A stretch of DNA of 64,000 nucleotides from positions 1,102 to 65,101 of IMG/VR virus record IMGVR_UViG_3300023174_000163; one strand, given 5' to 3'. A program made the translations under genes and the position numbers. Below, piece by piece: positions 42,682 through 64,000 of this stretch. The notes under the pieces are model-generated. The model worked only from the letters and a program-made list of their open reading frames with translations, was not told the DNA's origin and did not search any database. Origin of the DNA: a virus (Duplodnaviria > Caudoviricetes). Each line of letters opens with the position of its first letter. The stretch's first letter is position 1.

Positions 42682-44556
42682 TTATGAGTTTTGTATTACC
42701 AGCCAGTCATTATCATAGTAGTCTACAGAGTTTTCTGTCAGGGTGATGGACGGAGAATTGTCATCTACCACTGTAGAAGTTGATCCATATATGTATAGAT
42801 GGTAATGCTCAGATGCTTTTGATGCTGTAAATTGGTCTGGGTATATAGCCAGGTTCTGGAATAAGCCTGGAACTGAACCAGAGGAAGAATGTGCAAATTT
42901 TATTTTTACGCTTACTGCGGCAGTAAAAACAATTACGACATGGTGCATTTGTCCTAATTTAAATATATTTGAGACATTTGTTTCTGCTGTCTTGTTTACA
43001 TCATTTACATATATTGCAGATATATTAGTTTTGCTTATTGTTCCACTACCGTTCCATGAATAATTTGAGGCAGCATATGATCCACTAGATGTTGTTGATA
43101 TCAATCCACTAACTGTCAATGCATACGGGGTATAGAAAAATTCTAATGTCTTAATTGAAGATGTTGTGTTAATGTAAAAGCCAGAACCCTGAATAGTTCT
43201 TATTCCATTTCTGGCATTTCTTGAAAGAATTGGATGCTTGTTATTTCCAATTGTTATATCATATACTGAGACTCCAGCAAGTCCCTCTAATGTAGAAATA
43301 TAGCTAGAGCTATTTGAAGCATATGCAATTTGATTATTATAAAATTTAATTTGAAGGGTAGATATCTTAGGCAAATACTTATTACTATCTGGTGTTGCTA
43401 AAGTTATCTTTAAATAAATTTGCTTATTGCCATTAAAACTTGCAATTGTAAATTGTGGAATTTTCTGTCCGTTTTGGCATGTTTGATATGTTGTACCATC
43501 TACTGAAACTTCTACTGTTATTCCACTTGTTCCGTCCCACTCAATTTTTGAAGAATCTAAAACTGCGGCATAAGGCAAAGAAATATAATCTGTCAATACA
43601 ACTGTTTTAGAACCAGTTGATTTTTTAATAGACAGGGATTGTTCTGCATCACTATAATATAAATCATCAGTAATAAAGTAATCCCATGATTTGTTTCCAG
43701 GGTATGAATAAATAAATTGTGTTGAAATATTTTCGTCATATAACTCAAATAGCTCACCGTTGTCTGGATCTACAATTTGAATTGGGGCAGGGCCTACATT
43801 TTGATTATAATGATTTTGAATCTGAGATTGAGATAGACTATATCTGTATACAGCAACGCTGTTTATAAGGAAGGAGTCTGCTGCATCTGTTGTTGGTCCA
43901 CTTGATAATTCAAGGGCGGTGTTGCTAAACTGAAAATTAGAAATTGTAGATGTATTTACTAAAACCCCATCTATGTAAAGAGATAGTAGTGTGGGGCTAT
44001 ATATGCCTACAATATGAATAACCTTATCTGCATAGGGCAAGGTATGTTCTACATATTCGGCCTGTACTTTAAAAACAATGTTTTCATTATCATAAAATAT
44101 GCCAATAGCTTCATCTGCATCTGCCAAAATGCTTGTTAATCCATTTGTAGTAAAGACTGGATGTATCCAGACTTCAAGTGTAAAGTCATTATCTGAAGAA
44201 TATATTGTTGCAAACTGGCTGGAAGTTGCAGAAGCTGTATAATCATTTAAAAATGAATATTGAATAGAGTTTTCACTACCTATTTTTGTTGCTCTTGAAT
44301 TACCAATTGTTATTGGAGTAATTTCTGTTACTGGGTCCCCCGCATATAATGCATCATTTTCACATCCAGAATGATCATATGCGGTATCTCCATAAATACT
44401 TGCGTAAGAAGTTATAAGAGTGTCATCTAAAATTGCTTGATATGTTGCATATGAGTTTTCAAGAGCTGTATAGTTTGCAACATCAACTGTTGTTAAATCA
44501 TCTAATGGATAATATCCAATAGGGTAATCTGAAAGAATAATTGATTTATATGACAT
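42682..44556 (-). CDS. LamG/concanavalin-A-like domain virion protein
   Basis: PIGYYPLDD, FTLEVWI, HIVGIY...LYIDG, VAVYRYSLS..IQNHY; second LamG-like unit at C-terminus. Confidence 0.75.
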   Translation of the reverse strand: MSYKSIILSDYPIGYYPLDDLTTVDVANYTALENSYATYQAILDDTLITSYASIYGDTAYDHSGCENDALYAGDPVTEITPITIGNSRATKIGSENSIQYSFLNDYTASATSSQFATIYSSDNDFTLEVWIHPVFTTNGLTSILADADEAIGIFYDNENIVFKVQAEYVEHTLPYADKVIHIVGIYSPTLLSLYIDGVLVNTSTISNFQFSNTALELSSGPTTDAADSFLINSVAVYRYSLSQSQIQNHYNQNVGPAPIQIVDPDNGELFELYDENISTQFIYSYPGNKSWDYFITDDLYYSDAEQSLSIKKSTGSKTVVLTDYISLPYAAVLDSSKIEWDGTSGITVEVSVDGTTYQTCQNGQKIPQFTIASFNGNKQIYLKITLATPDSNKYLPKISTLQIKFYNNQIAYASNSSSYISTLEGLAGVSVYDITIGNNKHPILSRNARNGIRTIQGSGFYINTTSSIKTLEFFYTPYALTVSGLISTTSSGSYAASNYSWNGSGTISKTNISAIYVNDVNKTAETNVSNIFKLGQMHHVVIVFTAAVSVKIKFAHSSSGSVPGLFQNLAIYPDQFTASKASEHYHLYIYGSTSTVVDDNSPSITLTENSVDYYDNDWLVIQNS

Positions 44557-45755
44557 TATCCACCTACCGCAGATTTAAGATATCTAACAATTACTATACC
44601 GTTACCGCCTGCACCAGAAGGGTTTCCATAAAATGCTACACCTGCTCCTCCAGAACCAGTGCCATTTGCTCCACCATTAGAAAGTCCAGCGTTGTAGGTA
44701 GTATTTCCTCCGCCCCCATAACCTCCTGAGGCATTATATGCAATCCCTGACATATATCCTCCAGAACCTGATCCTCCGCCAGCATACCATCCGTCTACGC
44801 CAGTAGATGTTGCTGTTGCCCAAGCAGAGTATGAAGATATTCCATTTCCTCCCCAACCAAGGAATCCTCCAGCTGGTCCGTCCTGGCCTACGTTAGAGTA
44901 TCCGCCTCCGCCTCCAGATCCAATACCCCCATTAACTGGAGCGGATGAGTCTCTATATCCTCTTCCTCCACCTTTACCTTGAGGTGAAGTACCAGAACCA
45001 CCACTACTGTAACCAGAATTGCTACTAGCTCCTCCACCACCGCCTGATCCACCTGCTTTTCCTCTTTCGGATGGTGTTGTTGTTGGACTTCCTCCTCCAC
45101 CTCCACCAGTTGTATTAACATTATTACCTAGAGAAGATGATCCGCCATTTTGCCCTTGATCATTAGAAGAAAGCGCTCCAGTTCCAACAGTAACTACTAA
45201 TGTTCCAAGAACTGAAGACTGTGATCCTGTTGCTACACCTCCAGCGCCACCTCCTCCACCAAATCCTGAACCACCACTACCTCCAGCTGCTATAACTAAA
45301 TATTCAATATCTACAGCAACAGATGAGACAACAAAGTTGCTACTGCTTGTAAATGTTCTATAGTAATATGTTGCATCTGAAGATAATGTTCCACCAGTTA
45401 CTGTAGCTGCAAGAAGCGGAGTTAATGAGCTTGATGAAGAGCTTGAATCACTTGTGCCAAATGCATTTGTTGAAGTCATTGTAAATGTATATGCCTGATT
45501 TGCTACAAAAGTACCAGTAACTGTTAGAGATCCATCTAAATCTGTATTTGTATAAGTAAGATCTATTGAAGGTGATGAAGTAATTGCAATTGTTGTTATT
45601 GGTGATCCATTAGCATTACCTAATGTGTAATTTAAAGTTATTGAAGTAGAATTTATTGTTGATACAGAAGTAATTGATGGAGCTAATGGTTTACTTGCTC
45701 CCACCTTTACTAAACCTCTTGCGGATAAATTAGCTAGCGATTGGAATAATGGCAT
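44556..45755 (-). CDS. Glycine-rich adhesin-like protein with FN3-like N-terminus
   Basis: YRTFTSS, EYLVIAAGGSGG, YAGGG, GGNGIVIVRY. Confidence 0.75.
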   Translation of the reverse strand: MPLFQSLANLSARGLVKVGASKPLAPSITSVSTINSTSITLNYTLGNANGSPITTIAITSSPSIDLTYTNTDLDGSLTVTGTFVANQAYTFTMTSTNAFGTSDSSSSSSSLTPLLAATVTGGTLSSDATYYYRTFTSSSNFVVSSVAVDIEYLVIAAGGSGGSGFGGGGGAGGVATGSQSSVLGTLVVTVGTGALSSNDQGQNGGSSSLGNNVNTTGGGGGGSPTTTPSERGKAGGSGGGGGASSNSGYSSGGSGTSPQGKGGGRGYRDSSAPVNGGIGSGGGGGYSNVGQDGPAGGFLGWGGNGISSYSAWATATSTGVDGWYAGGGSGSGGYMSGIAYNASGGYGGGGNTTYNAGLSNGGANGTGSGGAGVAFYGNPSGAGGNGIVIVRYLKSAVGG

Positions 45756-45769
45756 TTATTTTCCGCCCC

Positions 45770-47047
45770 CTATGCGTATTTAGTTTGTGATCCGAATACA
45801 GTATATGTTGCAGATGCTGTTTTAAGTATTGTGTAAATATAAGAATCTATTGATGAGGCATTGCCAACTGTTGGTGCCGTTCCATTTAACCACTTTATGC
45901 TACCTTGAGTAGATCCATCAATTTGAAATGTTGATGGATAGGATGCTGTTGATGCTCCAGTTGTATTTAAAAATGCAACGGTAATTGATTGTCCAGTAGA
46001 TAATAAAGAATTAAGAGTTGTTCCTGAGTTTCCTCTAACATTTAAAGTAAATGCACTTGTTGAGCCTGTTGTATAATACCAAACGCTTGAGGTAGTAACA
46101 TCCATATTTATTGTAGATGATGTTGCTGCTGCAACTACATTTGCTGTTTCAATTAATCCAATTACTGCTGAGTTTGTTTGTATTGTACCTTGGGTTCCCG
46201 TTGTGCCTTGGGTTCCAGTAGTACCCTGTGTTCCAGTTGAGCCTTGTGAACCAGTTGTACCTTGAGCACCTGTTGTACCTTGTGTTCCAGTTGTGCCAGT
46301 TGTACCCTGTGTTCCAGTTGCACCTTGTGTACCAGTTGTACCAGTAGTTCCTTGTGCACCAGTAGTTCCTTGTGCTCCAGTTGTTCCGTTTGTACCCTGT
46401 GTGCCTGTTGCACCCTGTGTTCCAGTTGCACCTTGTGTACCAGTTGTACCAGTAGTTCCTTGTGCACCAGTAGTTCCTTGTGAACCAGTTGTACCTTGTG
46501 AACCTTGAATTGGACCAACATTTGTCCATTCTGCTCCAGTCCAAACATATAAGTTACCAGAAATTGTATAAGCATCTCCAAGTGTTCCTGTTGGATGCGC
46601 TGTTTGTAATGCACCTAAATTTGCATACGTTCCAAGGATACTTACTCCAGTTCCAGCAATTCCTTGTACGCCCGTTGTACCTTGTGTACCTGTTGTACCT
46701 TGTGTACCAGTTGTGCCTTGTGTACCTGTTGTACCTTGTGAACCAGTTGTACCCTGAAGGCCCTGTGTACCTTGTGTTCCAGTCGTACCTTGTGTACCTT
46801 GTGCTCCAGTTGTTCCTTGAGAACCAGTAGTTCCCTGAGAACCTACTGCACCTTGTGTTCCAGTTGTACCTTGTAAACCCCGTGTTCCCTGAACGCCTTG
46901 TACACCTTGTGTTCCAGTAGTTCCTTGAGGTCCAGGGTTTGCTGTTAAATATGTGTCTACATTTTGTGCAAGTAGTTGAATGTCCGCAGGAATATCTGGC
47001 GGATCTGAATAAGCGGGAAAACTAAAACCCTTTGATGTTGAGCCCAT
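45770..47047 (-). CDS. Collagen-like fibre protein
   Basis: Two long Gly-X-Y runs (GTQ/GTT/GAQ/GSQ) split by a small domain; beta-rich C-terminal domain. Confidence 0.85.
   Translation of the reverse strand: MGSTSKGFSFPAYSDPPDIPADIQLLAQNVDTYLTANPGPQGTTGTQGVQGVQGTRGLQGTTGTQGAVGSQGTTGSQGTTGAQGTQGTTGTQGTQGLQGTTGSQGTTGTQGTTGTQGTTGTQGTTGVQGIAGTGVSILGTYANLGALQTAHPTGTLGDAYTISGNLYVWTGAEWTNVGPIQGSQGTTGSQGTTGAQGTTGTTGTQGATGTQGATGTQGTNGTTGAQGTTGAQGTTGTTGTQGATGTQGTTGTTGTQGTTGAQGTTGSQGSTGTQGTTGTQGTTGTQGTIQTNSAVIGLIETANVVAAATSSTINMDVTTSSVWYYTTGSTSAFTLNVRGNSGTTLNSLLSTGQSITVAFLNTTGASTASYPSTFQIDGSTQGSIKWLNGTAPTVGNASSIDSYIYTILKTASATYTVFGSQTKYA
46304..46482. repeat. ~70-nt direct duplication (108-nt period) in collagen gene
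   Basis: accctgtgttccagttgcaccttgtgtaccagttgtaccagtagttccttgtgcaccagtagttccttgtg at about 46304 and 46412. Confidence 0.8.
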
Positions 47048-47053
47048 TTTAAA

Positions 47054-47062
47054 ATTATACCA
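47054..47062 (-). promoter_or_regulatory. Extended -10 leaderless promoter
   Basis: TGGTATAAT, 6 nt before ATG 47047. Confidence 0.65.
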
Positions 47063-47093
47063 CCTTAAATGTTATGACAATCACCTATAAAAC

Positions 47094-48389
47094 TTACTGA
47101 ATATAGACCTTTTCTGAGACCCATAGACGATGCCCCATAAAAGTAATAAGTTCAATTCCAAATTCACTATCTTCTACAACCTTTAAGTACTTCTCATGAT
47201 AAGGGTATTTACAAAGGAACAGCTTATTATGACCTATAGCAAATGGCACCAAAGTAGGAAATGTTCGTAGATATTCTACAAGACCGTCCATTACCCCAAG
47301 CCAGTGGGGGTGGGTAATATCATCTAAAATTACTATGCCTGTATCGCTAACATATTTTTCTGCCAACTTTAGGTCATTAAGAGTATGTGTCTTTGTGTGT
47401 CCGCCATCTATAGAAAAATATCTAATAGATCCTGGCTTTATTAAAGAAGAAATTTCTGACTGTGTTTTGCCTGAAGTTGAATCTCCTTTAATTATATTAA
47501 CTTTCTTTCCTTTAAAATTATCGTAGTTCTTTAAATTTTCTTTAAATATATCAGTAGAACCTTGCCCACCATTACTATCACTATTGAGATGTTGATCTTC
47601 AAAGATATCTATAGCATATGAATTTTCTTCGGTATCAATCATATTTCTAAGAAGAAGGAAGAAGCGACCCATATAAACTCCAATTTCTGCTACCCCTCCT
47701 TCTTTATTCCAATCAACATTAAGTATTTTCATAAATTCTGGAAGTGTTCTTACAACCCATCCAGGAACTTTAGTAAAACCATCATTGAGATATTTATCGT
47801 AATCTGACTCAATGATATCTTTACCAATCCCCATAAAATCTAAGTTTGTTTTAACTGATGAAGAATACATTTTAGGCATTGCTATCTTAGAAAGTTTAGT
47901 AAACAATTCTTGGCTTTCATCTTGTCTTCCTACCCACCAAGCACATACAGCTTTTTGAAATGTTAAACAAAAATCTCCTGGGTAATCAACACCTACTGGA
48001 AGTGGTGCATGGTTTCCTGATAATTTATAAAGACCAACTTCTGCATAGGTATATGCTTGTTGCCAATTCTTATTTCGTTCACTATAACGAGAAAGTAAAA
48101 ACCATGCTTCTGGTCTTCCTGGTTGATATGCAACGGCTTTTAAGAAAAGATTTTCTACTGTAGCCTGTCTATTTTTTTGATTTTCAAAACAATTTGCTGA
48201 CTTTAATAATGATGCATATACATACTCTGGATGTGAATAGTAACCATATTCTGCCGCCCTTAAATAAAATGAAATAGCAGCAGCTGTTTGTCCTACAAGT
48301 TCATACTCTGTAGCAATGCTAAAACAAAGCTTTGGGTCAAAAGGGTCTTTGCTTAGTTTTTCAACTAATTCATTTATAACCTCAAACAT
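47094..48389 (-). CDS. TPR domain + class I SAM methyltransferase (Methyltransf_24-like) fusion
   Basis: TPR-like helices (QPGRPEAWFLL); VAEIGVYMG, AIDIF, KGDS, SIDGGH, VILDD. Confidence 0.8.
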   Translation of the reverse strand: MFEVINELVEKLSKDPFDPKLCFSIATEYELVGQTAAAISFYLRAAEYGYYSHPEYVYASLLKSANCFENQKNRQATVENLFLKAVAYQPGRPEAWFLLSRYSERNKNWQQAYTYAEVGLYKLSGNHAPLPVGVDYPGDFCLTFQKAVCAWWVGRQDESQELFTKLSKIAMPKMYSSSVKTNLDFMGIGKDIIESDYDKYLNDGFTKVPGWVVRTLPEFMKILNVDWNKEGGVAEIGVYMGRFFLLLRNMIDTEENSYAIDIFEDQHLNSDSNGGQGSTDIFKENLKNYDNFKGKKVNIIKGDSTSGKTQSEISSLIKPGSIRYFSIDGGHTKTHTLNDLKLAEKYVSDTGIVILDDITHPHWLGVMDGLVEYLRTFPTLVPFAIGHNKLFLCKYPYHEKYLKVVEDSEFGIELITFMGHRLWVSEKVYIQ

Positions 48390-49380
48390 TTATAGCCTCT
48401 GCAATCATACTATCTATTACATCTCCTGGAACCCTTAGAACAAAAGCTGCATTATCTACATACCCAAATGTGATGAGGAGGTCTTCTTGTAATTGTGCTG
48501 CCCCAGCACAGAATTCTATTTGTCCATCTAAAAATGACCAACATTCTGGAGAAATTCCTTTAAGCACAAATTTGTCATCCCATACACATAATCTATGTCT
48601 GTATGTAGCATTTTTCTGCTTCATATAATTTTTATATAAAACAACTTCATGTGTAATAGCGATGTATTTATCTTTCCATTTAATAACTTGGGATCCACCA
48701 CGCTGATCAAAATTAATAGCATTTACTTCTTCGTGAGACACTTGCTCACATTTGGCTTCTTTGGGATCAGCTTTAACTACCTCTGTAGGTGATGTCCATT
48801 TAATATATTGAAATTCTCTATCTAAAATTGGCATCCAGTTTTTTTCACAATAGGATGTTTCATCTATTGGTGCTGGAATTCTAATACGAGATATTTCTTT
48901 TGCCGTCCAATTGTCTTTATCAATTTTTAATTCTGATAATTCCATACGACCAACTCCGTTAGTTGTTGTATCTCTGCGAACTCCTGTTGCATAATATTTG
49001 CCATCCCATTTAACAAGTCTGGCATCTTCTAATCCAACAAATGTCCATATTGGGGCAACATCTAATTTAGTAGTGTCAATTAATGTCCAGTTAATTATAT
49101 TTAAATCTTTATCAAGTCGGCAAAGGTAGTTTGCAGTTATTAGTCTTTGATCTTCTTCTGGATGTAAATATGCTAATGGTCCCCATACGCTAGGAAATCT
49201 TTGATCATTTTCAGAGTGATATAAAGTATAGTTTATGTGTCTTAATATACATAGAATATCTCCATCATCATCTATAAAGATAGAGGGATTCATTAATCCT
49301 GTCCCGCCCGTTTCTTCGGCGGGAATAATAAGAGGAACTAATTTTCCCCCATTAGATATTGATTTTTGTACTAGATTCAT
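48382..49380 (-). CDS. Five-bladed beta-propeller glycosidase/phosphorylase-like protein (GH130/GH43 clan-like)
   Basis: MNPSI, GLEDARL, EKNWMP, RGGS, IEFCAG, ITFGYVD. Confidence 0.7.
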   Translation of the reverse strand: MNLVQKSISNGGKLVPLIIPAEETGGTGLMNPSIFIDDDGDILCILRHINYTLYHSENDQRFPSVWGPLAYLHPEEDQRLITANYLCRLDKDLNIINWTLIDTTKLDVAPIWTFVGLEDARLVKWDGKYYATGVRRDTTTNGVGRMELSELKIDKDNWTAKEISRIRIPAPIDETSYCEKNWMPILDREFQYIKWTSPTEVVKADPKEAKCEQVSHEEVNAINFDQRGGSQVIKWKDKYIAITHEVVLYKNYMKQKNATYRHRLCVWDDKFVLKGISPECWSFLDGQIEFCAGAAQLQEDLLITFGYVDNAAFVLRVPGDVIDSMIAEAINV

Positions 49381-49416: not shown

Positions 49417-49419
49417 TGC

Positions 49420-51411
49420 TTATTTAACATAAACTAGAATCTGAGCACCACTGCCTGCACCACCATTAGTTCTAGTGGAATTACCAAATGAGACGTTATT
49501 ATTGTAGGTTACACCACCGCCACCACCACCGCCGCCGCCATATACATTTGCAGAAGAACCATTGCCTGCAGGACCCATAGTATTTTGAGAGTTCATACTG
49601 CCACCGACTCCTCCTGCTCCACCATCAGGGGTTCCTCCAATTCCGCCGCTTTTTTGAAAGGGACTACCAGCAGGTCCTGGAGCAACAGTATTAAAAGAAC
49701 CACCAAAACCGCCACCACCGCCGCCACCAGAACCTCCCTGTAAATAAGAAGATATGTTTGCATCGTTTGAATTTATAGTTAATTGTGCAGTTCCACTACC
49801 ACCATCGCTATATCCATAACTGCCAGTACCACCAGACTTACCAGAAGAAGACACATCTGCGGTTCCAGTGTTAAAACTTACATTTCCTCCAGAACCACCA
49901 AGTCGACCGCCGCTAGAAGCCGCACCACCACTTGCCCCATTCAAAGTAAGGATATTTCCAAAAGTAGTATTTCCACCAGTGTTACCGCCAGTGTTACCTG
50001 AACCACCGTTTCCTTGGCTACCAATAGTTATAGAATAGATATTTCCAGGAGTTACGGTAATTTCTCGTAAAATAACTACTCCACCACTACCGCCACCTCC
50101 GCCAGCGGAAATATCGGTTTCTTCTGCACCGCCAGTGCCACCTCCGCCTCCTGCACCAATGCCTACAATTGCCATTGATGTTTTACCAGCAGGTACGGTG
50201 TAGTTACCAGAAGCATTGAATGTCTGTGATAGCGCATAAGCAAGAATTGGGGTAATTGAGTTAGAGGCTACCGAAGCTGTTGATGCGCCATAAGCATTAT
50301 TTGCAACTATTGTAAAGCTATAAGATGTATTTGCTGCAAAAGCACCAGTTACTGATAATGGAGAAGAAGTACTAGAAGTAGACAAAGAAATAGAAGGGCT
50401 ACTTGTTACAGTATAACTTGTAATAGAAGATCCACCGTTATTTCCTGCAGTAAATGGTATAGAAATAGTTGTTGCGTTTGTCACTGTAGCAGTTCCAATT
50501 GTAGGTGCTTGAGGAACAGTTGCTGCTGTAACTGAATTTGATACAGATGTTGCTAATGAATCACCATTAGCATTTACAGATTTTAATCTAAAGTTATACA
50601 AAGTACCAGAAGCTAGTCCTGATACTGTTAAAGGGCTTGTAGTCTGTGATGGAGAAAAAGCTGTGTAGGTTGTACCATCTGTTGAATACTTATAATTGGA
50701 AATCGTCTTGCCACCAGTTGCTCCTGCTGTAAATGTTAAAGAAGCTGTTGGCGTTGAACCATAAGCAATACCTGTTGTTGCTGTAGCTGTTCCAATTGTT
50801 GGTGCTTGAGGCAAGGTTGTTGTTGTTGCTGAGTTTGATGCAGAAGATGCCAATGCGTTACCATAACCATTTGTTGCTGTAACTGTAAATGTAGTTGATG
50901 TACCAACTGGAATATCTGTAACAACAATTGGTGAAGATGACCCTGATGCAGAATATCCTCCAGATGTTGATGTTGCTGTATAACTTGATGCAAGGCCTCC
51001 ACCAGCATTTGGTGTAAATGTAACACTTACTGCGCCATTATTGTATGCACGATTTGTTCCAACATCTGTAGATGTTCCAATTGTTGCAGATAAAGGAATA
51101 ACTCCAAGTTGTGACCAACCTGCTGATGTGTAAACTTCAATATATCCAGTTTCAGTATTTGAATAAATGTCACCCAAAGACGGTGATCCTGGTCTACTTG
51201 CAGTATTACCTTTTGAATATCCATTTGGTAATGTAACCCAAGATGTTGTTGTTCCGTTAGTTTGTAAAACTTTATTAGCAGAAGATGTTTGTAATGGTAG
51301 TAAAGCATTTAAAGCATTATCGGCAGATGTTTGTCCTGTTCCGCCCTCTGTTAAAGGAAGGGGGGTACCAAGATCAAGACCTGACTTTACTTTAAAATCT
51401 TTATCTGCCAT
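49420..51411 (-). CDS. Fibre/adhesin: KDFKVK N-terminus, 3 FN3-like repeats, Gly-rich C-terminus
   Basis: PQAPTIGTAT repeats; poly-Gly; ends GAGSGAQILVYVK. Confidence 0.8.
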   Translation of the reverse strand: MADKDFKVKSGLDLGTPLPLTEGGTGQTSADNALNALLPLQTSSANKVLQTNGTTTSWVTLPNGYSKGNTASRPGSPSLGDIYSNTETGYIEVYTSAGWSQLGVIPLSATIGTSTDVGTNRAYNNGAVSVTFTPNAGGGLASSYTATSTSGGYSASGSSSPIVVTDIPVGTSTTFTVTATNGYGNALASSASNSATTTTLPQAPTIGTATATTGIAYGSTPTASLTFTAGATGGKTISNYKYSTDGTTYTAFSPSQTTSPLTVSGLASGTLYNFRLKSVNANGDSLATSVSNSVTAATVPQAPTIGTATVTNATTISIPFTAGNNGGSSITSYTVTSSPSISLSTSSTSSPLSVTGAFAANTSYSFTIVANNAYGASTASVASNSITPILAYALSQTFNASGNYTVPAGKTSMAIVGIGAGGGGGTGGAEETDISAGGGGGSGGVVILREITVTPGNIYSITIGSQGNGGSGNTGGNTGGNTTFGNILTLNGASGGAASSGGRLGGSGGNVSFNTGTADVSSSGKSGGTGSYGYSDGGSGTAQLTINSNDANISSYLQGGSGGGGGGGFGGSFNTVAPGPAGSPFQKSGGIGGTPDGGAGGVGGSMNSQNTMGPAGNGSSANVYGGGGGGGGGVTYNNNVSFGNSTRTNGGAGSGAQILVYVK

Positions 51412-54395: not shown

Positions 54396-54722
54396 TTATT
54401 CTATTGGCTCTGGAAAATCAAATTCATCCCATGAAACTGTTTCTTCATTCCATGTATAGAATTTACCTTCTGTGACTGGCATAGCAATAGGTGCTTCCCA
54501 ATCTCCTGCTTCATTTAAAATCCAAGAAGGGAACGGCTTAGGAAGAATAAATCTTGTTCCGTCCCAAGTTCCACCAATTGCTGTTTTTTCTGTTGCAAGT
54601 ATAATGTGATCTAAACCAAATTCTGTTTTGAATTGATTTAATAGCTCTTCTGTTGGTTCATCAAATACTGCAACATTTGTTACATTGCCGTCTTTAATAA
54701 ACGCATAATTTGTTTCAGCCAT
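54396..54722 (-). CDS. Small acidic Trp/Pro protein, possible fibre assembly chaperone
   Basis: YAFIKDGNVTN, IGGTWDG, PKPFPSW, WEAPIAMP, YTWNEETVSW; own promoter TGATACAAT and SD. Confidence 0.6.
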   Translation of the reverse strand: MAETNYAFIKDGNVTNVAVFDEPTEELLNQFKTEFGLDHIILATEKTAIGGTWDGTRFILPKPFPSWILNEAGDWEAPIAMPVTEGKFYTWNEETVSWDEFDFPEPIE

Positions 54723-56679: not shown

Positions 56680-57350
56680 TAACCCATTCTCCATCCATAC
56701 GTAGCTCCAGTATACACAAATATTGCTGCCACTCCATTTACATCTAGTGTTGCATCTTGTGTAACACCGTTTATTTTCCCGCCACTTATTACTGTTATAT
56801 TGTATGTTGCTGCTGTTCCTGTTGCATCAAGAATTTCAATTGCATCTCCAACTGCAGGGGATGCGGGTAATGTTAAAGATCTTGCAGATGTTGTAGTAAC
56901 TAAATATCTATATCCTGATACAAGAGTTTGATCTGTTGAAATAGCGCTAGATGTTATAGATGCTGGGCCTGTAGCTCCAGTTGTACCTTGTGTTCCCGCC
57001 GTTCCTTGTGTGCCCTGAGAGCCAACAGTTCCCTGTGTGCCTTGAGAACCAACAGATCCTTGAACTCCCTGTGTACCATTTGTACCCTGAGTTCCTTGAG
57101 AACCTACTGTACCTTGAGAACCAACTGCTCCCTGTGAGCCTGTCGAACCCTGTGTGCCAAGCGTTCCTTGTGTGCCAGTTGCACCCTGTGCGCCAGTTGT
57201 ACCTTGTGCTCCAGTTGTGCCCTGTGCGCCTGTCGAACCCTGTGTGCCAAGCGTTCCCTGGGTTCCAGTAGTTCCTTGTGCGCCAACAGTTGAGGCGGTG
57301 CCAACAGTCTGCCAAGCACTTCCATCCCATACTTTAATTAATTTAGCCAT
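56679..57350 (-). CDS. Collagen-like short fibre with TLPASP...YGWR C-terminal domain
   Basis: Gly-X-Y run (GTQ/GAQ/GSQ); 29-nt duplication at about 57139 and 57229. Confidence 0.8.
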   Translation of the reverse strand: MAKLIKVWDGSAWQTVGTASTVGAQGTTGTQGTLGTQGSTGAQGTTGAQGTTGAQGATGTQGTLGTQGSTGSQGAVGSQGTVGSQGTQGTNGTQGVQGSVGSQGTQGTVGSQGTQGTAGTQGTTGATGPASITSSAISTDQTLVSGYRYLVTTTSARSLTLPASPAVGDAIEILDATGTAATYNITVISGGKINGVTQDATLDVNGVAAIFVYTGATYGWRMG

Positions 57351-57565
57351 TAGTTACCTCCTAGAAGTAGTTGGGCTTCTTCTGCTGTAATGCCTAGACG
57401 GGCAAGGAGTGCTGCTTTATCGGTGGCTGCTTTTGCTTCGGCAGCCTCAATCGCTTCTCGTTCTGCTACTTCTTTAGCAAGTTGTGTTAGCTCTGCCTCG
57501 TTCATATTGCGCATAGTTTCTTCGCCTGTTTCGGCATTGACTATTTTAACTTGTGGTGTTGTCAT
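57350..57565 (-). CDS. Small helical protein, possible fibre chaperone
   Basis: NAETGEE..R.M...E; KAALLARLGITAEEAQLL. Confidence 0.6.
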   Translation of the reverse strand: MTTPQVKIVNAETGEETMRNMNEAELTQLAKEVAEREAIEAAEAKAATDKAALLARLGITAEEAQLLLGGN

Positions 57566-58302
57566 TAGTTCACTCCATAAATCTTGACTGTTCCACCAGT
57601 AAAGTTACCGCCAGAGTCATTGTTTAACTCAAAACTTGAAATTGCGGCAGTTAGATTTGTTGCACCAAAATTTGATACTCCTAAAGGCTCTATTTGTGAA
57701 GCCATTTTGGCAATACCTACAAGATGAAATGGCTTGCGGGCTGCTGCATCGGTGTAATTATAAATTGTTAATGCATAATCATTAACTGCGCTACTTGCTG
57801 AGTGTCCTGCATAACCTGGACTAATATAATCAGGATTAGCACTTTCCGCTACTGCTCCTCTGAGACTTGTATAATTGTTAGCAGTAGAAGCATTAGGTTT
57901 TAATTTCAATGTGTATGTTCCCGTTGTAACTGTTAAACCAGTAATCAAAATATAGAGATTAGTATAACTTTGGGAAATGCTGGATATTGTAATAGTAGCA
58001 GCACCAGTTAAAGTTGTAGTGCTAAGTAAAGTCATACTGCCACTAGTAGGTGTTGTCCAAGCAGGCACACCACCAGCAACATTTAATACCTGACCAGTGC
58101 TTCCAATACCTAAACGAGCAGGTGTATTCGCACCTGATGCATAAATAATATCGCCAGTTGTAGTAGTAAGTGTTTTTTGAACATATTCAGTATGTGGATT
58201 AGATGCGGCGGAATGATTAGAAATAGCAGTAGCTACTTCAACATCTGTCCCCAAAACTGAAGATGCTGTTAATATACTTGCTAGATCTCTAACTCTAGAC
58301 AT
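57565..58302 (-). CDS. Fibre-like virion protein
   Basis: MSRVRDLA N-terminus; TTTGDIIYASGANTPARLGIG block; ends GTVKIYG. Confidence 0.7.
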   Translation of the reverse strand: MSRVRDLASILTASSVLGTDVEVATAISNHSAASNPHTEYVQKTLTTTTGDIIYASGANTPARLGIGSTGQVLNVAGGVPAWTTPTSGSMTLLSTTTLTGAATITISSISQSYTNLYILITGLTVTTGTYTLKLKPNASTANNYTSLRGAVAESANPDYISPGYAGHSASSAVNDYALTIYNYTDAAARKPFHLVGIAKMASQIEPLGVSNFGATNLTAAISSFELNNDSGGNFTGGTVKIYGVN

Positions 58303-58373
58303 TTATTCTCCTTTTTATTCCCGCATTTTTTTATTTAAATTGTTTTATAAGTCTTTTAGTCAAATGTTGAATT

Positions 58374-58619
58374 TTATAAACCTAGTGCTGTTTTTAATTC
58401 ATCAAGAGTTAAACCAGCAGCAGCCAATTTATCTGCCACGGTTGGCTCAACAAAAGGTGCAGGGATGTGCGCCGCAACAAGTGATAAAACTTCGGCCTCT
58501 GTTTTATCTGAATCAATAATTAAATCATTACCATTGACACGCACAGATAGGGCTCCAATTTCGGCCTGTAATTGGTCTCCGTTTAATTGCTCTGGTATTG
58601 GTAGTTTATATGTATTCAT
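58374..58619 (-). CDS. Small protein, possible fibre chaperone
   Basis: LNGDQLQAEI; PTVADKLAAAGLTLDELKTAL. Confidence 0.6.
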   Translation of the reverse strand: MNTYKLPIPEQLNGDQLQAEIGALSVRVNGNDLIIDSDKTEAEVLSLVAAHIPAPFVEPTVADKLAAAGLTLDELKTALGL

Positions 58620-58620
58620 C

Positions 58621-59238
58621 TTATGCTCCTAAGTAAGCCCAGGTACAATTTGAGTTTGTAACACCTGGATAATAAGCTCGTGATACGCCTGTATTCTGCC
58701 AAGCGTAAGTTTCGTAATAATCTCCTACTACAGCATCTACTATGCCAGCAAGCGTGAAACCATGACCTCCGCCAGTTGTGCCGTTAGCAAACTGCGAAGC
58801 GTATTTTAATTGTGATCCATTTTTGTAAATTGAAATGCGTGAATTAGCCCATCCGTTATAGCCTTCATAATCAAGAGTGATAGTAAATAAATATTTTCCA
58901 GCTTTCCCTGATGGTATTGTAAATCTTGTATTATTAGTGCTTGTGTCATGATAACTATTTGTATCCCATTCCTCTTGAGGATAAGGTATGGCGGTCCACG
59001 TATTGCTTGCTACGGTTACAGTGCCGTTATTTGATAATGATGCTCCTGAATAAGCTGAACCGCTTGAAGGCGTAGCCCAACTTGGCAATCCCGATGCTAC
59101 TGTCAAGACTTGTCCAGCAGTTCCTATACCTAGCCTAGCAGATGTATTGGCAGCAGAGGCATAAAGAGTATCACCTGTTGTTGTTAATTTTGTTTCTTGA
59201 ATACCTGAAAAAGGTACTGGATAAATACTTGAACTCAT
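58621..59238 (-). CDS. Fibre-like protein with C1q-like head
   Basis: TTTGDTLYASAANTSARLGIG block; EEWDT..YH, RFTIP..KAGKY, VGDYYE. Confidence 0.7.
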   Translation of the reverse strand: MSSSIYPVPFSGIQETKLTTTGDTLYASAANTSARLGIGTAGQVLTVASGLPSWATPSSGSAYSGASLSNNGTVTVASNTWTAIPYPQEEWDTNSYHDTSTNNTRFTIPSGKAGKYLFTITLDYEGYNGWANSRISIYKNGSQLKYASQFANGTTGGGHGFTLAGIVDAVVGDYYETYAWQNTGVSRAYYPGVTNSNCTWAYLGA

Positions 59239-59540
59239 TATGAAATCTCCAATCCACTAATATGAAATGAAACAGTGACTGCACTTGCAAATCCAGCAAT
59301 AATTTTAGTTGTTGTTAAAACTTGTTTCAGGCTAAAAGTTGCTGTTGAATTAGCAGCAATTGCCACTGTTTTTAATAAATCTACACCGTCAAGTGTAATT
59401 GTAAATGTTGCTGCTGATGCTGCAGAATTACATACTGCAATATCTGTTATGACAGTAGTTGTGCTTGACGGTACTGTATACAGTGTTGTAGATGATGTTG
59501 CTGCTGCTGTACGAGCCAGCGCTTTTGCTGTATTTGCCAT
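59238..59540 (-). CDS. Small beta-rich virion protein
   Basis: TTLYTVPSSTT, VCN, SFHISGLEI. Confidence 0.65.
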   Translation of the reverse strand: MANTAKALARTAAATSSTTLYTVPSSTTTVITDIAVCNSAASAATFTITLDGVDLLKTVAIAANSTATFSLKQVLTTTKIIAGFASAVTVSFHISGLEIS

Positions 59541-60169
59541 TAGTATGCCCCCATAATTAATGCTATATCTTGATTAGCATTTAAATTTGTTATTTCTGCC
59601 TGTGTATATGTATTTACTGAGTTTAAATTAGTTACTGTTACTACCTCTATTATATCATTAACCGCCGCCCCAGATGCTAGGGTAATTGTATTTGAATTAG
59701 AAGTTGTATAGTCGGTGGTGCGAAGTAAAAGCATTCCATTAAAGAATACCTGCTCATATCCATCTATAAATGAAACGTCAGTAGTAAATACTGTTTGTGC
59801 TGCAGTAGCAGTAAATGCCTGTCTGCGAATAATATTTGTATCAAATGCTACATCTGTAGAATCAGAGTCAATCCATACTTGTCCAGTAACTGGAGAAGAT
59901 GGTTCAGATGTTTGATAAGCTGTAGCTAAGACCTGATTCCATTGTGTAGTTGTGCCATTTGTCTGAAGGTAGTAATTTATGTTACCCGTTTGAAGCGGTA
60001 GCAGGGCATTTAAGGCATTTCCAGCGGTTGTCTGTCCTGTTCCACCCTCTGTAATTGCAAGGGTGGCAGAGGAGCTTATGACGCCAGATGAATCAGTTTT
60101 AACAATTCCCGCTGTAGACAGTGAGGGAACAACTAGTCCATTTTTTACCTTAAAGTCTTTATTAGACAT
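59540..60169 (-). CDS. Fibre/adaptor protein with KDFKVK N-terminus
   Basis: GGTGQTTAGNALNALLP; FTATAAQTVF..VFFNG..DYT..ITL domain. Confidence 0.7.
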   Translation of the reverse strand: MSNKDFKVKNGLVVPSLSTAGIVKTDSSGVISSSATLAITEGGTGQTTAGNALNALLPLQTGNINYYLQTNGTTTQWNQVLATAYQTSEPSSPVTGQVWIDSDSTDVAFDTNIIRRQAFTATAAQTVFTTDVSFIDGYEQVFFNGMLLLRTTDYTTSNSNTITLASGAAVNDIIEVVTVTNLNSVNTYTQAEITNLNANQDIALIMGAY

Positions 60170-60179
60170 TAATTACTCC

Positions 60180-63074
60180 TTAAAGTGCTATTTTACTGAA
60201 TTTTGCTGTTACGTTTGTGCTTGAAGCATCTGTTACAGTTACCTGTAATATTGCATTTGTTGAAGATACTGAAGCTGCTACAACTACACCTGTCATTGTT
60301 CCGCCAGTTTCTGTAATTGCAAACTCTGTCATATCTACAGATGTTCCGTCAGTTTGAACAAGGACCTTAGATGTTCTAATCTTTGATCCTTGTTTTAATG
60401 AAACCATATATTCAATTGATGTAAATGCTGATAATGCTGTAGTATCTACAGTAGTTGCAGTATTTGCTGAAATTGCTGAAGCTGTTGTAGTTGAAATTGG
60501 AACTACTAATGTTCCCCATGATGATGTTGTTCCATCTGTAGTTAAATATTTACCTGAATTTCCAGTTTGAGTTGGAACTACATATGCAGTTGAATCAGTT
60601 GCAACTAATGTTTTGGATGATGGAATTGTTGTTCCGTTTATGCTAGTAGCTGTTGCTACACCAAGAACTGGTGTTACAAGAGTAGGGGTAGTAGAAAATA
60701 CTAAGTTACCAGTACCTGTTTCATCAGTTACGGCAGAAATAAGGTTTGCACTAGATGGAGTTCCAAGGAATGTGGCAATTCCAGTTCCAAGTGAAGTAAT
60801 ACCAGTACCACCATTAGCTACTGGTAATGTACCAGTTACACCTGTTGTAAGTGGTAATCCAGTTGTATTTGTTAATACACCAGATGCTGGAGTTCCAAGA
60901 GCTGGGGTTACAAGAGTAGGAGATGTAGCAAATACTAGAGCTCCTGAACCTGTTTCATCAGATATGACTCCAGCTAATTCAGAAGAAGTTGTTGCTGCAT
61001 GTACTGATAATTTATCTGTAGTAACTACCAAAGTCTTGCTTGATGGAATAGTTGTTGAGTTAATTGTTAGTCCAGCAACATTTGAAACTGTAGAACCAGA
61101 TGCAATTGAAGTTGATCCAAGAGTTGGAGCTAAATATCCTGAAACAGTACCCCAAGAAAGGGCTCCTGCTCCATCTGTTGTAAGGTATTTCCCAGAGTTA
61201 GATGCTTGTGCTGGAAGTAATGCTGCCGCTGCAGTAGATGCAGTGGTTGCTCCAGTACCACCATTAGTAATTGGAAGGGTTCCAGAAACATCGCTAGCAA
61301 GTCTTACTGTTAAAGTATTATCTGCTCCATTAATTGTTTTATTTGTTAATGTTTGAGCAGTTGTCTTATCTACAGTTGTTGCTGTATCAATTGCAAGTGT
61401 TCCTGGTGATGTTTCTGTTAAGCCAGTTCCTGCAGCAATTGCCTTTGCAGCATTAAATGCTACATAAGTTACATTTGTTGTACCTATAGTAATTGCTGAT
61501 GTATTAGAACAAATATATCCATACCCAGCATTAATTGTACCTTCTATAACTAGACAGAAATCTCCGCCCTTTAATTCTCCATCAGGTGTATTATCAGCAT
61601 CTGCTGCACGAGACCATGCGCCTGATGCTGCTACATATAAACCATTTTCAGTCTGTGTTGTCTGATCTTTAACAAGAACACGGTCTCCAGCAATTACTGA
61701 AACTCCGTCAATTGTTTGTGCTCCGCTTAATGTAATGTTTGCTGTTGTAGCAACCCGTACTGGCTGGTGGAAGTTAAGTCCAGATACAACATTATCTACA
61801 TACAACTTAGTTGCTGCATGTAGATCAGATATTGGTGCTTGAGCCAATGTTACTGTACCAGTAAATGTAGGCGAAGCAATTGGAGCATATGTTGTTCCAG
61901 CAGTTGTAGATGCTAATTTAGCATCTATCTGAGTTTGAATTGCAGATGTTACTCCATCTAGATATCCAATTTCTGTATCTGTTACGCCTGTTACTCTTAA
62001 TTGAATATTTGTTGAATCTACAGTAATTGTATTTGATGCATCATTATATGTTAATCCTGTACCAAGAATTCCACCTATTGCGTCCTGTGCCGCCTCATTA
62101 AAATCTGAAATTGTTGATGCTGTTTGTGAACCTGTGTGATTTGCACGGGCGAGTGGGTCTGTTGCTAATTTAGATAAATCAATTGCTGCTGAAGAAGAAA
62201 TGTCAGCATTTGCAATTGTTCCGTCTAAAATCATTGCAGAAGTAACTGTGCCTGATGGCAATGTTACTGTACCAGTAAATGTTGGTGAAGCAAGAGGAGC
62301 AACTCCAGTTAAAGTATTTGAAGCAATACTAATAGTTTTATTTGTTAATGTTTCTGCGCCTGCAAGTGAGGCTATATCTGCATCGCTAACTGCAGTATTT
62401 AATTGAGCCAGGGTTGAAGTAATTGTATTTGAACCCAATGAAATTGATTTATTAGTAAGAGTATCTGTTGAGTCTTTTAAAACAATTGTTCCTGTTGCAT
62501 CTGGTACTGTAACTGTACGATCTGCTGTAGGTTCTCCTACTACAAGTGTTGTCTCATATGAATCTGCTACTGTGCCTTCAAAAACTATGCTTGCATCAGA
62601 TAAAGATAATCCAGAAACTGTTGGATTTGTTAAAGTTTTGTTTGTTAAAGTATTTGTTGAACTTTCCAATACTACTGTACCAGTAGCATCTGGGAAAGTA
62701 ATTGTTCTATCTGCTGTAGGATCTGTAAATACTACAGTTGTCTCAGATGCATTATCTGTTGTACCTTCAACAATAAATCCTGGACCTAGAATTAATGCAT
62801 TTCCGCTTGCATCCATTTCTACTAACCCGCCCTTGACTCCGACGTCTGTTGTTGGAACATAGTCTCCAAGTGAGCTTGCTAATCCTGCTGGGGTAACATT
62901 AGAATATGCTGAGATGCTGTTCCATGCTGTACCTACTGTGGGGGCAGTAACGGCAGGACCAATTTTAAATTTACCTGTGTCTGTCTCTATACCCATTTCA
63001 CCTGGGTAAAGTAGTGGATTGTTTGAGCTCCAGTTACCAGATGTATCTTTTCTTAATTGAATTCTAATTGCCAT
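60180..63074 (-). CDS. Long fibre protein with Mtd-N-like N-terminus
   Basis: [29 protein letters not shown]; TLTNKT repeats; [13 protein letters not shown]...GDRVLVKDQ...NGLY domain. Confidence 0.82.
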
Positions 63075-63075
63075 T

Positions 63076-63375
63076 TTATGCTGTTCCCCCATCTATTGAA
63101 TCATTAAATTCTGTTGTTGCTCCCCCGCCATTTATTGAAACTACATAGTCAGTATTTGTTGCGTAATTTCCATAATCAACGGTTCTAATTCCTCCATCTG
63201 TGTAGTGTGTATGGTCCAAAATTTCTTTTGGACCAGCCACATCATACCAAATTTCTCCGTTATATGCCTTAATAGTTCTTTCTTCTGTATTATAATACAT
63301 TTGCCCAGTTACTGGAGAGGCAGGCGCTGTGGCCATATTAACCAATACTATCGGAGTTAAGAACTTTTTAGCCAT
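63076..63375 (-). CDS. Small virion-associated protein
   Basis: [13 protein letters not shown] motif, IDGG end. Confidence 0.6.
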
Positions 63376-63379
63376 GTTA

Positions 63380-64000
63380 TTATGCCTGTACTACTACTCT
63401 GTATGTTTCTCCTGAAACAGGAGCTACTGCAAATCCAATTGTTACATCGGATGTAGTTATTCTTGTAATATCTGTCTCAACCTTAGCACCAGTTGCTACT
63501 TCATACACAGATACTTGAATGTCTAATGTTCCAAGACCGTGTGTGATTGCAAAGTCAGTTGTGGAATATGGTGACGATGGTGTGATAGTAGTTGCATACT
63601 TACGTACAACAACTGATGTATCAATTGCTACATCATCAGCATTTACTGTAATACCAGTTCCAGCTCCAACTGCAAATGTTGTTCCAGTTAGAGTAAGACC
63701 TGCGCCTCCAGCATATGTTCCAGCTCCTGAGAACTGTGTGAATGTCAGCGCTGTAGTACCTAGTGTTATTGCATCATCTGTTGTAAGAACCCAGCCAGTG
63801 TTTCCATTAGCTGTACCTTCTGATACGAAGGTGAATAGACCAGCGGTAACTTCTGCGCTTACATTTGCATCTGCTGCACGAGCAGGTGCTCCAGAAGAAG
63901 CAACTACGTAGATACCGTTTTCTGCGCCAGTTCCTTGATTCTTAACAAGAATTCTGTCTCCAGTAACAAGTGTTACTCCATCTACAACATCGCCATTTTC
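63380..64000 (-). CDS. Tail-fibre-like protein (5' part outside window)
   Basis: Not in ORF track; ...DGVTLVTGDRILVKNQGTGAENGIY...ITHGLGT...YRVVVQA*; shares domain with 60180 ORF. Confidence 0.8.
   Translation of the reverse strand, partial: ENGDVVDGVTLVTGDRILVKNQGTGAENGIYVVASSGAPARAADANVSAEVTAGLFTFVSEGTANGNTGWVLTTDDAITLGTTALTFTQFSGAGTYAGGAGLTLTGTTFAVGAGTGITVNADDVAIDTSVVVRKYATTITPSSPYSTTDFAITHGLGTLDIQVSVYEVATGAKVETDITRITTSDVTIGFAVAPVSGETYRVVVQA

Follow-up and report, generated by a model that had tools for sequence, protein, structure and literature searches.

Receptor-binding proteins that are mounted on each other through small N-terminal or adaptor domains are known from the tailspikes TSP1-4 of phage CBA120 (Ackermannviridae) and from gp66/gp63.1 of phage G7C. 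In TSP4 the XD1 domain is internal, is said not to bind trimeric partners, and has linkers occupying both of its faces, according to the sections of its published description that were available (PMC8825819). For a different module, the TNF-like plus glycine-rich domain of gp24 in cyanophage Pam3, the assigned role is recognition of the receptor; the accessible part of that paper relates the domain to the gp38 adhesin of phage S16 and to the glycine-rich domain of ALK, and has the fibre depend on a separate Tfa-like chaperone, gp25 (PMC9608196). Hypervariable fibre loci are also on record, as in isolated aquatic phages of 'Ca. Nanopelagicales', for which the excerpted report describes a 5-kb hypervariable island with tail fibre and collagen-like genes in a conserved genome (PMC10202952). 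Here we describe a fibre-gene array at positions 42682-64000 of a 64,000-nucleotide stretch of viral DNA (hereafter the window), which represents bases 1102-65101 of the 65,101-bp linear IMG/VR record IMGVR_UViG_3300023174_000163 (CheckV completeness about 60%). The region holds 22 open reading frames (ORFs), all on the minus strand; a first-pass annotation had counted about 17 fibre-like or fibre-associated genes among them, and we find fibre-type modules in about 15, the others being four small accessory genes and three that are enzyme-like or unknown.

We read this region as a hypervariable host-recognition island, that is, as late-operon genes for several virion fibres, most likely tail-borne receptor-binding side fibres, that draw on a limited module set, and we give this reading about an even chance of being right. 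Each fibre would begin with a short conserved N-terminal anchor (of class K, with subtypes a, b and c, or of class R, W, Q [the Mtd_N domain] or C), continue in a shaft made up of fn3 domains, GGTG units or collagen triplets, and end either in a C-terminal XD1 beta-sandwich or in a distal TNF-like plus glycine-rich (Gly-rich) tip. The XD1-ended proteins would be adaptors, and the next gene, starting on the adaptor stop codon (TAATG), would encode a tip with the N-terminus M-[AP]-x-x-x-[ST]-S. Such a tip may dock on the XD1 trimer in the way that gp37 of T2- and S16-type fibres is capped by the gp38 adhesin (an analogy taken from the available part of the Pam3 paper's discussion [PMC9608196] together with general knowledge), with small genes after many tips possibly acting in fibre assembly as chaperones. 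Recombination at module borders would swap tips and adaptors among co-circulating phages, shifting receptor specificity while the anchors stay constant.

Adaptors, tips and anchor modules

The claim of the first-pass annotation that the array is built from recurring blocks holds up in blastp (E values in the range 1e-10 to 5e-27), in searches with module hidden Markov models (HMMs) and in the terminal classes described below. The sequence M-x-x-KDFKVK begins three proteins, those of 49420-51411, 53021-53527 (from a TTG start) and 59540-60169 (genes are referred to below by their lower coordinate; 49420 and 59540 are 46% identical over 107 amino acids [aa], E 1e-18, and 53021 matches 59540 with E 9e-11). 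A GGTG...LLPxQ...W block lies in 49420, 59540 and 60180, twice in the last (aa 600-649 and 800-861); TTTGD...RLGIG..GQVL is shared by 57565 and 58621 (67% over 45 aa, E 1e-15), and a C-terminal TLPASP...YTG.TYGWR domain by 53021 and 56679 (52% over 88 aa, E 5e-27). One additional pair, 60180 and 63380, was also found (42% over 132 aa, E 5e-20). The KDFKVK and GGTG blocks, listed earlier as two, are indeed both present and form the two halves of a single N-terminal module (alignment A4), which we call the K-module. Of the 40 window proteins outside the array, none is matched by any of 11 module HMMs, in agreement with the earlier view that the array is separate from the tail module.

The TLPASP...TYGWR domain is XD1, a nine-stranded beta-sandwich known from CBA120 TSP4 (phmmer, E 7e-8 to residues 81-174 of Protein Data Bank [PDB] entry 7REJ). 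A model of the 168-aa product of 53021-53527 (K-module subtype c in aa 1-79, XD1 in aa 80-167) has a predicted local distance difference test score (pLDDT) of 85.7, and its XD1 part superposes on TSP4 in 7REJ with Z 16.3, the root mean square deviation (rmsd) being 1.2 over 93 aa, at 26% identity. In structure XD1 also resembles a baseplate chain of Klebsiella phage KP1 (Z 13.6), the knob at the C-terminus of the capsid spike of Pa223 (Z 10.9), a Solidus tailspike (Z 10.6) and the modules with which CpaA and StcE bind glycans. The second adaptor, 56679-57350, joins a W-type N-terminus (MAKLIKVWDGSAW) to 36 collagen triplets (Pfam Collagen, E 7e-18) and a C-terminal XD1 (E 1e-35 with the XD1C HMM). 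The adaptors end one or two residues past XD1, their 7REJ matches span only residues 80-175, and the jellyroll docking domains XD2 and XD3 of TSP4 were not found in them; because XD1 is C-terminal here, its distal face is free.

The gene that follows an XD1 gene is usually a tip gene. In two scans of IMG/VR, the LamG gene that adjoins the array was found in 61 loci and the gene of K-module subtype b (K-b) in 56, and ORFs were mapped for 12 contigs. A Gly-rich ORF comes next after 53 of 61 distinct XD1-ended proteins, compared with 182 of 1127 ORFs overall, and a 1-nt stop/start overlap follows XD1-ended genes at 49 of 56 distinct junctions, compared with 150 of 887 other junctions (the sequences behind these counts are related, and the counts are descriptive rather than tallies of independent events). 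The overlap takes the form of an ATG sharing one base with the TAA stop in 75 of 83 XD1-gene occurrences. Among the distinct ORFs that start on the stop of an XD1 gene, 48 have Gly-rich C-termini and five have other ones, with none ending in XD1 or collagen; the proteins encoded downstream of XD1 genes have in common about 10 N-terminal residues, M-[AP]-x-x-x-[ST]-S-[LI]-x-G, and then diverge.

Two such pairs lie in the window, 56679 with 55762 and 53021 with 51423, and a second tip, 54779, is joined behind the first pair in the same way. The tip of 55762-56679 (MPIKYS N-terminus, beta-rich N-domain, TNF-like/Gly-rich domain) likely has its true start at the ATG that overlaps the adaptor stop. 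Its neighbour, 54779-55762, again has an MPIKYS N-terminus, a Gly-rich C-terminus and a TAATG junction, and 51423-53021 starts at a TAATG (MALSYTS...) and consists of an N-domain, fn3 (Pfam E 5e-9) and a Gly-rich domain. This tight translational coupling would fit a stoichiometric complex of adaptor and tip. A complex prediction from three copies of XD1 (alignment A2) and three of the tip N-termini (alignment A3, residues 1-125) scored 0.02 against a mark of 0.32, and counts neither way.

All five Gly-rich C-termini reported by the first-pass annotation are present and are of a single domain class, though not equally well supported. Pfam Gly_rich_2 (PF21722, cut-off 24.3 bits) matches 44556 with 33.1 bits and 55762 with 25.0 bits, both above the cut-off, and 51423 with 20.9 bits, below it; in hhalign the C-terminus of 49420 reaches 99.7% probability and that of 54779, against the Gly_rich_2 alignment A1, 91%. 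We modelled the 399-aa product of 44556-45755 from a 70-sequence alignment (pLDDT 91.6), which gave an fn3 domain (residues 27-97) and, behind it, a beta-sandwich continuing into stacked loops rich in glycine. A structure search with this model, made independently of Foldseek over about 48,000 PDB representatives, ranked as its top two 7YPX_A, the fibre of Pam3 (28% identity; Z 14.7 and rmsd 2.8 over 180 aa) and the tail-tip chain 9D93_Qa of mycobacteriophage Bxb1 (Z 14.1; a literature search found no relevant paper for 9D93). The model has no N-terminal helices, unlike Pam3 gp24 with its baseplate-docking alpha-helical bundle. The tip homology points to receptor binding, and there are at least 833 Gly_rich_2 relatives among 8000 scored candidates.

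Small genes often follow the tips. The one at 54396-54722 (108 aa) represents a family that usually comes after Gly-rich genes (directly so for 45 of 56 distinct members), with homologues in aquatic podo- and myophages that are all annotated 'hypothetical'; searches for Tfa, Pfam, NCBIfam and annotated PHROG matches to these proteins found none. From their position we consider such genes candidates for assembly chaperones.

The K-module begins with a constant peptide. In alignment A4 (34 sequences) M1, K4, D5, F6, K9, G42, G43, G45 and G72 are invariant, and the loci hold 71 distinct KDFKVK proteins of 95-1052 aa with unrelated C-termini, 69 of which have the motif at residue 4. Across 86 distinct K-gene starts, Lys7 is encoded by AAA (51) or AAG (34) and Val8 by GTA (48), GTT (23) or GTC (11); KDFKVK is constant while its codons vary synonymously, and the constraint therefore acts on the peptide and not on the DNA. 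The proposal that KDFKVK is a docking peptide is plausible from such conservation. The string itself was found nowhere in the literature searched. A K-module profile matched 761 proteins at E <= 1e-3 among 1.84 billion cluster representatives; among the best 150 of these, 61 begin KDFKVK-like, further ones have KNF, KSF or KHF variants, and the remaining matches inspected are long proteins with 2-23 GGTG units, because of which we regard the GGTG unit as a widespread fibre repeat and the K peptide as its N-terminal cap. In the monomer model of 53021 the K-module (aa 1-75) has a pLDDT of 64-85, and no chain aligned there in a wide structural search that barely probed this part; no new fold is claimed. 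The 86 distinct K genes start with ATG (44), TTG (32) or GTG (10) and are preceded by a purine-rich ribosome-binding stretch of their own. Several also have a TATAAT-like hexamer 20-30 nt upstream, possibly an internal promoter; a scan of 44001-64000 returned 47 promoter-like sites where 60.6 were expected, and few minus-strand terminator-like sites, and was uninformative.

Each K subtype occurs once per fully covered array. In the window K-a is the 663-aa product of 49420-51411, which carries fn3 repeats and a Gly-rich tip in one protein, K-b is the 209-aa product of 59540-60169, and K-c is the adaptor 53021. All six fully covered arrays (the window and contigs A, B, C, J and E) have exactly one K-a, one K-b and one K-c; arrays M and D+F have all three as well, allowing for a mis-called start and a coverage gap, and contig H, which is cut short upstream, has three K-c. 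Anchors and C-termini are combined selectively among the distinct ORFs of the loci: class K (KDFKVK) precedes 19 Gly-rich, 23 XD1, no collagen and 26 other C-termini; class R (MSRxRDxA) 31 Gly-rich, no XD1, no collagen and 16 other; class W (KVWDGS) no Gly-rich, 15 XD1, one collagen and seven other; and class C (MGSTSKGF) 28 collagen C-termini and none of the rest, so that XD1 is found only behind K or W. The three subtypes might mark a fixed three-branch junction with exchangeable distal parts, either as an N-terminal heterotrimeric tripod or as three sockets of one hub, with XD1-ended arms taking a plug-in tip and the whole possibly borne on the capsid or neck. We regard this elaboration as doubtful; if true, it would be a natural plug-and-play multi-receptor apparatus whose anchor module is without counterpart in cultured phages or solved structures.

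Borders, variation and gene content of the island

Essentially all genes of the window lie on the minus strand. In the order of transcription the array (64000 down to 44556) leads into the LamG-domain gene (42682-44556; 624 aa, Pfam Laminin_G_3, 50-93% identical in relatives), a gene for a small phrog_9394 protein and the portal gene (40670-42253; Pfam Phage_portal, E 2e-33), and then into those for the prohead protease, the major capsid protein, connectors, the major tail protein, a 2090-aa tape measure, tail-tip proteins, a Peptidase_S74 fibre (19031-21331) and replication. Because the contig ends at position 64000, the array is cut off there. Over 94-98% of its length the portal shares 57-60% identity with those of Streptomyces phages (Stanwilliamsviridae), with which the portal, protease, capsid, tape-measure and LamG genes are also syntenic, so that the backbone is that of a Stanwilliamsviridae-like siphophage; a megablast search with 39001-64000 found no near-identical DNA in cultured phages. 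The tail module, with the Peptidase_S74 fibre that the first-pass annotation had already recognized as its own, matches the gene set of the Streptomyces relatives gene for gene and holds no extra hub gene.

Some observations on this backbone stand apart from the array. Two adjacent tail genes (22925-26685, minus strand; 678 aa and 574 aa) match positions 46-483 and 635-1077 of phrog_10359 and occupy the place of one 1065-aa minor tail protein in StarPlatinum, which indicates a split or a fusion. The G+C content of the window (32-43%) is low, yet its portal is Streptomyces-like, suggesting a low-GC, possibly freshwater actinobacterial host. Genes of replication and recombination at 5912-9056 (minus strand) are a PD-(D/E)XK/Cas4-like nuclease (5912-6703), RecA (7675-8679) and a MazG-like gene (8709-9056), and a RuvC-like gene is found at 5084-5653.

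The Streptomyces relatives define the borders of the island. StarPlatinum and BillNye have the order glycosyltransferase, ribonucleotide reductase (RNR), LysM endolysin, large hypothetical protein, small protein, portal; the large hypothetical protein is the LamG homologue, syntenic homologues of which occur in 86 Streptomyces phage records. Only the endolysin lies between RNR and LamG in these relatives, and the island is missing. Upstream of the array in contigs B, C and M are proteins of 330-342 aa and 644-648 aa and three small genes, and in contig B the two proteins are a glycosyltransferase (phrog_2170) and RNR (phrog_367). The array is thus an insertion of 11-24 kb (from LamG to the K-b gene, as derived from locus coordinates) in a conserved backbone slot between the glycosyltransferase/RNR block and the LamG-portal genes. 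The first-pass annotation had placed LamG among the array genes; judged by its conservation, it is a backbone gene that bounds the island and not a member of the variable array. LamG was also considered as an array-specific hub and rejected, such a role being unlikely because the gene is conserved where the array is missing.

Across the contigs compared the array is not invariant. We set the window against 10 contigs in a table of identities, in which a front block (collagen/DecoC protein, p99, Mtd_N fibre, K-b, p100 and TTGD protein) and a rear block (332-aa protein, TPR-methyltransferase, collagen fibre, Gly-rich protein and LamG) recur, and the middle of the array differs although the portals are 95-97% identical (contigs A, J, I and H). 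The adaptor 53021 is 98% identical in J, but in A no more than half of it is matched, at 57%; in A and I long Gly-rich proteins have its first 70 residues fused to them (86-87% identity); and for the tips 55762 and 54779 none of the 10 contigs has a homologue. This mosaic content bears out the exchangeable tips of the first-pass annotation. In the more distantly related contig K (L059, 104.8 kb, portal 79% identical), a DecoC-domain protein and an fn3 protein are encoded in the approximately 10 kb upstream of LamG, with neither K-module nor XD1 nor Gly-rich gene, and the content of the island thus changes class at greater distance.

These data also bear on a different explanation, in which the array is mainly a reservoir, with few fibres mounted per virion and the rest kept as spare cassettes for recombination or alternative expression. 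The restriction of the 55762 and 54779 tips to a single contig, the variation of the LamG-to-K-b distance from about 11 to 24 kb, and the presence of several proteins of the same anchor class, which could compete for one site, are consistent with it. We nevertheless judge it improbable, in that every ORF is intact and tightly packed, with many stop/start overlaps, the K genes have ribosome-binding stretches of their own, no repeats of the diversity-generating retroelement type or invertible repeats were found, and the rule of one gene per K subtype speaks for three fixed positions. A diversity-generating retroelement, which the Mtd_N domain brought to mind, was rejected as a candidate: the search found no template/variable repeats and no long near-identical direct repeat in 42000-64000 (the best pair outside low complexity, 123 nt at 73%, is the XD1 duplication), and no reverse transcriptase family was matched among the window ORFs scanned.

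The remaining genes of the island (all on the minus strand) include several small ones. The p99 protein (63076-63375; 99 aa, phrog_8309) has a P..P..G..YYN...W motif that recurs inside many fibre proteins; its HMM matches 175 locus proteins, and its orthologues in A, B, C, J and M are 81-94% identical. The p100 gene (59238-59540; 100 aa, phrog_1276) follows the K-b gene through a TAATG overlap and has 26 homologues in the loci and others in the phage Melnitz. The TTGD...RLGIG..GQVL block is found in the 205-aa product of 58621-59238 and, behind an R-type N-terminus (MSRVRDLASILT), in the 245-aa product of 57565-58302. A small protein of 81 aa (58374-58619) is known as an ORF only, with three HMM matches in the loci, and a helical-looking one of 71 aa (57350-57565) has 23 homologues there. 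The collagen-like fibre of 45770-47047 (425 aa; Pfam Collagen, E 5e-32) joins the C-type N-terminus MGSTSKGF to a globular C-domain (phrog_5906). An NCBIfam scan of 10 array proteins gave two sub-threshold chance matches only, and the annotated PHROG matches of the array are mostly of the 'tail' category.

Three further genes are not of fibre type. That at 53578-54300 is conserved (240 aa, phrog_7084, E 6e-57), and DUF6065, found in 23% of the members of one Protein Atlas cluster, is a lead only. The conserved gene 48382-49380 encodes a 332-aa protein with orthologues 62-95% identical in seven of the 10 contigs; no Pfam, PHROG or NCBIfam match was found for it, and an Atlas score of 0.96 to a cluster with PF04041 in 32% of its members offers, as a lead only, a possible GH130-like sugar-acting enzyme. 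A TPR plus class-I methyltransferase (Methyltransf_24, Pfam E 2e-13) is encoded at 47094-48389. Elsewhere in the window a second sugar-related cluster lies at 2415-4944 (minus strand), with Glyco_transf_25 (2415-3842), a cytidylyltransferase (3839-4264) and an FkbM methyltransferase (4261-4944); together with the island methyltransferase, the GH130-like lead and the upstream glycosyltransferase of the relatives, it raises the question of virion protein glycosylation.

Genes of this kind inside the island, the sugar-acting one being a lead, would also suit products that are not virion parts at all, such as phage-carried host-surface adhesins or surface modifiers acting, for example, in superinfection exclusion. 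Gly_rich_2 does occur in apparently cellular proteins, one of them with a prepilin N-terminal domain on a 278-kb contig, another match is named 'trimeric autotransporter adhesin' by its source, and long GGTG-repeat proteins with signal-peptide-like N-termini exist. No signal-peptide-like N-terminus was found among the window array proteins, however; the genes share the strand and tight spacing of the head genes, and XD1, Mtd_N, collagen and decoration-like modules are virion modules, which makes this explanation very hard to credit.

Tail and capsid as possible sites of the fibres

The first array gene, 63380-64000, is truncated by the contig end and encodes the C-terminal 206 aa of its protein, a C-domain that we named DecoC. 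Residues 5-204 match residues 43-240 of PDB entry 9NX3, 'Capsid decoration protein' (E 7.6e-15; a literature search found no paper on this entry), and the product belongs to phrog_2647 ('head decoration', E 7e-46). Full-length relatives have 937-990 aa, with 47-53 collagen triplets and DecoC, and full-length orthologues at 84% identity are present in contigs A, B, C and J. Actinophage homologues of DecoC are annotated 'head decoration' or 'virion protein', and in Phrappuccino the homologue is found with the head genes, ahead of the one for the tail sheath. These matches suggest an alternative in which these modular fibres are borne by the capsid or neck, anchored by N-terminal peptides or a decoration-like domain at quasi-equivalent sites, and act as adhesins for the first reversible contact with cells or particles. 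A precedent is the Pa223 spike, which the available part of its description shows as a trimer held by residues 2-41 only (10.1101/2025.06.11.659172), and which ends in an XD1-like knob. The position of the island beside the portal, protease and capsid genes, together with a tail module free of any extra hub gene, is consistent with this alternative as well. Other observations speak against it: the first DecoC sub-domain is also found in annotated tail fibres (gpH of Ralstonia phage RSA1, and Melnitz), and the solved relatives of the tip and the best matches of XD1 come from tails or baseplates. We consider it possible, with a probability clearly on the low side, and hold the same of a capsid or neck location as such.

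Another fibre gene bears on the tail side of the question. The 970-aa product of 60180-63092 has an Mtd_N N-terminus (Pfam PF18454, E 1.2e-8), the first half of DecoC, two internal GGTG units and a variable C-terminus, only its N-terminal part being conserved among relatives. Mtd_N is typical of tail fibres, as its Pfam family description has it, which argues against a capsid site. The same protein also matches 9NX3, and its residues 413-695 resemble the tail fibre of Legionella phage LME-1 (9EFK orf22; compared through the accessible part of PMC12407071). The likeness to Mtd_N and LME-1 fibres, the origin of both solved tip relatives (tail parts) and of the best XD1 matches (tail and baseplate proteins), and the presence of homologous cassettes beside annotated tail-fibre genes in Melnitz argue for tail-borne side fibres, and we put the chances of a tail location at about evens.

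Several points weigh against a host-recognition island of tail-borne fibres. We infer the presence of the array proteins in virions of this phage group. The island adjoins the head genes and is about 20 kb away from the tail module, which has its own S74 fibre and a Streptomyces-like gene set; the C-domain of the first array protein is homologous over its whole length to 9NX3; and an XD1-like knob also ends a capsid spike, that of Pa223. As to the partner to which the anchors would dock, no homologue of the K-module was found among 50,697 phage records, and the best match of its profile in the PDB has E 1.2, to unrelated proteins. The coupling of adaptors and tips has to be seen against TAATG overlaps that are common operon-wide (eight junctions in the window array), besides the relatedness of the sequences counted.

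Comparison with described systems

For understanding host range and for engineering phages, multi-receptor phages and swappable receptor-binding proteins are of central importance, and the well-studied cases are enterobacterial myo- and podophages. The present locus suggests the same logic in an abundant uncultured lineage of freshwater siphophages, with rules that are legible from sequence: anchor classes, XD1 sockets with coupled tips, and cassettes of a tip and a small gene. If these rules hold biochemically, they would provide a parts list from which the module that determines host specificity could be predicted for metagenomic phages, and the K-module would offer a conserved anchor for mounting foreign tips in laboratory phage-host systems. 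The folds of the Pam3 gp24 tip and of TSP4 XD1 are extended to a large environmental protein family. Interest would rise considerably if the three K anchors formed a fixed branching junction, or if the fibres were capsid-borne.

The likeness to CBA120 lies in XD1 and in the 168-aa adaptor 53021, which has the same layout and length as AD plus XD1 of the TSP4 N-terminal region (AD-XD1-XD2-XD3). The K-module takes the position (aa 1-79) of the N-terminal triple beta-helix anchor, AD, of TSP4, with a model pLDDT of 64-85 and no aligned match. XD1 is internal in TSP4, whereas here it is the C-terminal end of short adaptors, and the tips are Gly-rich rather than beta-helix depolymerases; the phage here is a siphophage, with these genes outside the tail module. 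With Pam3 gp24/gp25 and with gp38 on gp37 of S16 and T2 the array has in common a TNF-like plus glycine-rich distal domain and, after many tips, a small gene, and the encoding of gp38 right after its shaft gene parallels the adaptor-tip order found here. Pam3 gp24 docks through N-terminal alpha-helices, in place of which the 44556 model has fn3; Pam3 has one tip and the window five; and gp25 is a Tfa-like chaperone, whereas the small downstream proteins are without detectable Tfa homology.

Pa223 gp52, as far as the excerpted description goes, is likewise trimeric, with a short N-terminal peptide anchor, besides its XD1-like knob (10.1101/2025.06.11.659172), but it is encoded by one gene, has a shaft formed by a triple beta-helix and is proven to sit on the capsid, without adaptor-tip pairing and without sequence similarity to the anchors. 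Fibre cassettes with similar parts occur in Melnitz, a cultured T4-like marine myophage of OM43, which has 54396-like genes behind Gly-rich ones, p100-like genes and an Mtd_N-like fibre with DecoC repeats. In the Methylophilales phage Melnitz-2 (L124, record positions 96740-109890) cassettes of fibre, Gly-rich and 54396-like genes are repeated, mostly under the name 'hypothetical protein', and the gp170/gp171 junction before a Gly-rich gene is a TAATG; the XD1C HMM matched none of 14 Melnitz proteins tested. The available part of the Melnitz paper leaves the fibre cassettes unanalysed (PMC9004378). Mosig, a marine T4-like phage of SAR11, has XD1 in a 'putative tail fiber protein'. Both Melnitz and Mosig differ from the present phage in their myophage backbone, and no KDFKVK module was found in them. 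The 'Ca. Nanopelagicales' phages belong to an unrelated lineage with 39-kb genomes, and the island described here is four to five times larger than theirs, with anchor classes and adaptor-tip pairs.

The first-pass annotation had offered the array as an undescribed system. This does not stand in that form: a hypervariable island with multiple adaptor-mounted receptor-binding proteins is of a known kind, the tip, XD1, collagen, fn3 and Mtd_N are known fibre modules, and similar cassettes are present in Melnitz. New with respect to these systems are the K-module with its rule of one each of three subtypes, XD1 as a C-terminal socket with coupled Gly-rich tips, and an island of such size, placed apart from the tail module, in a freshwater lineage that is uncultured and akin to Stanwilliamsviridae.

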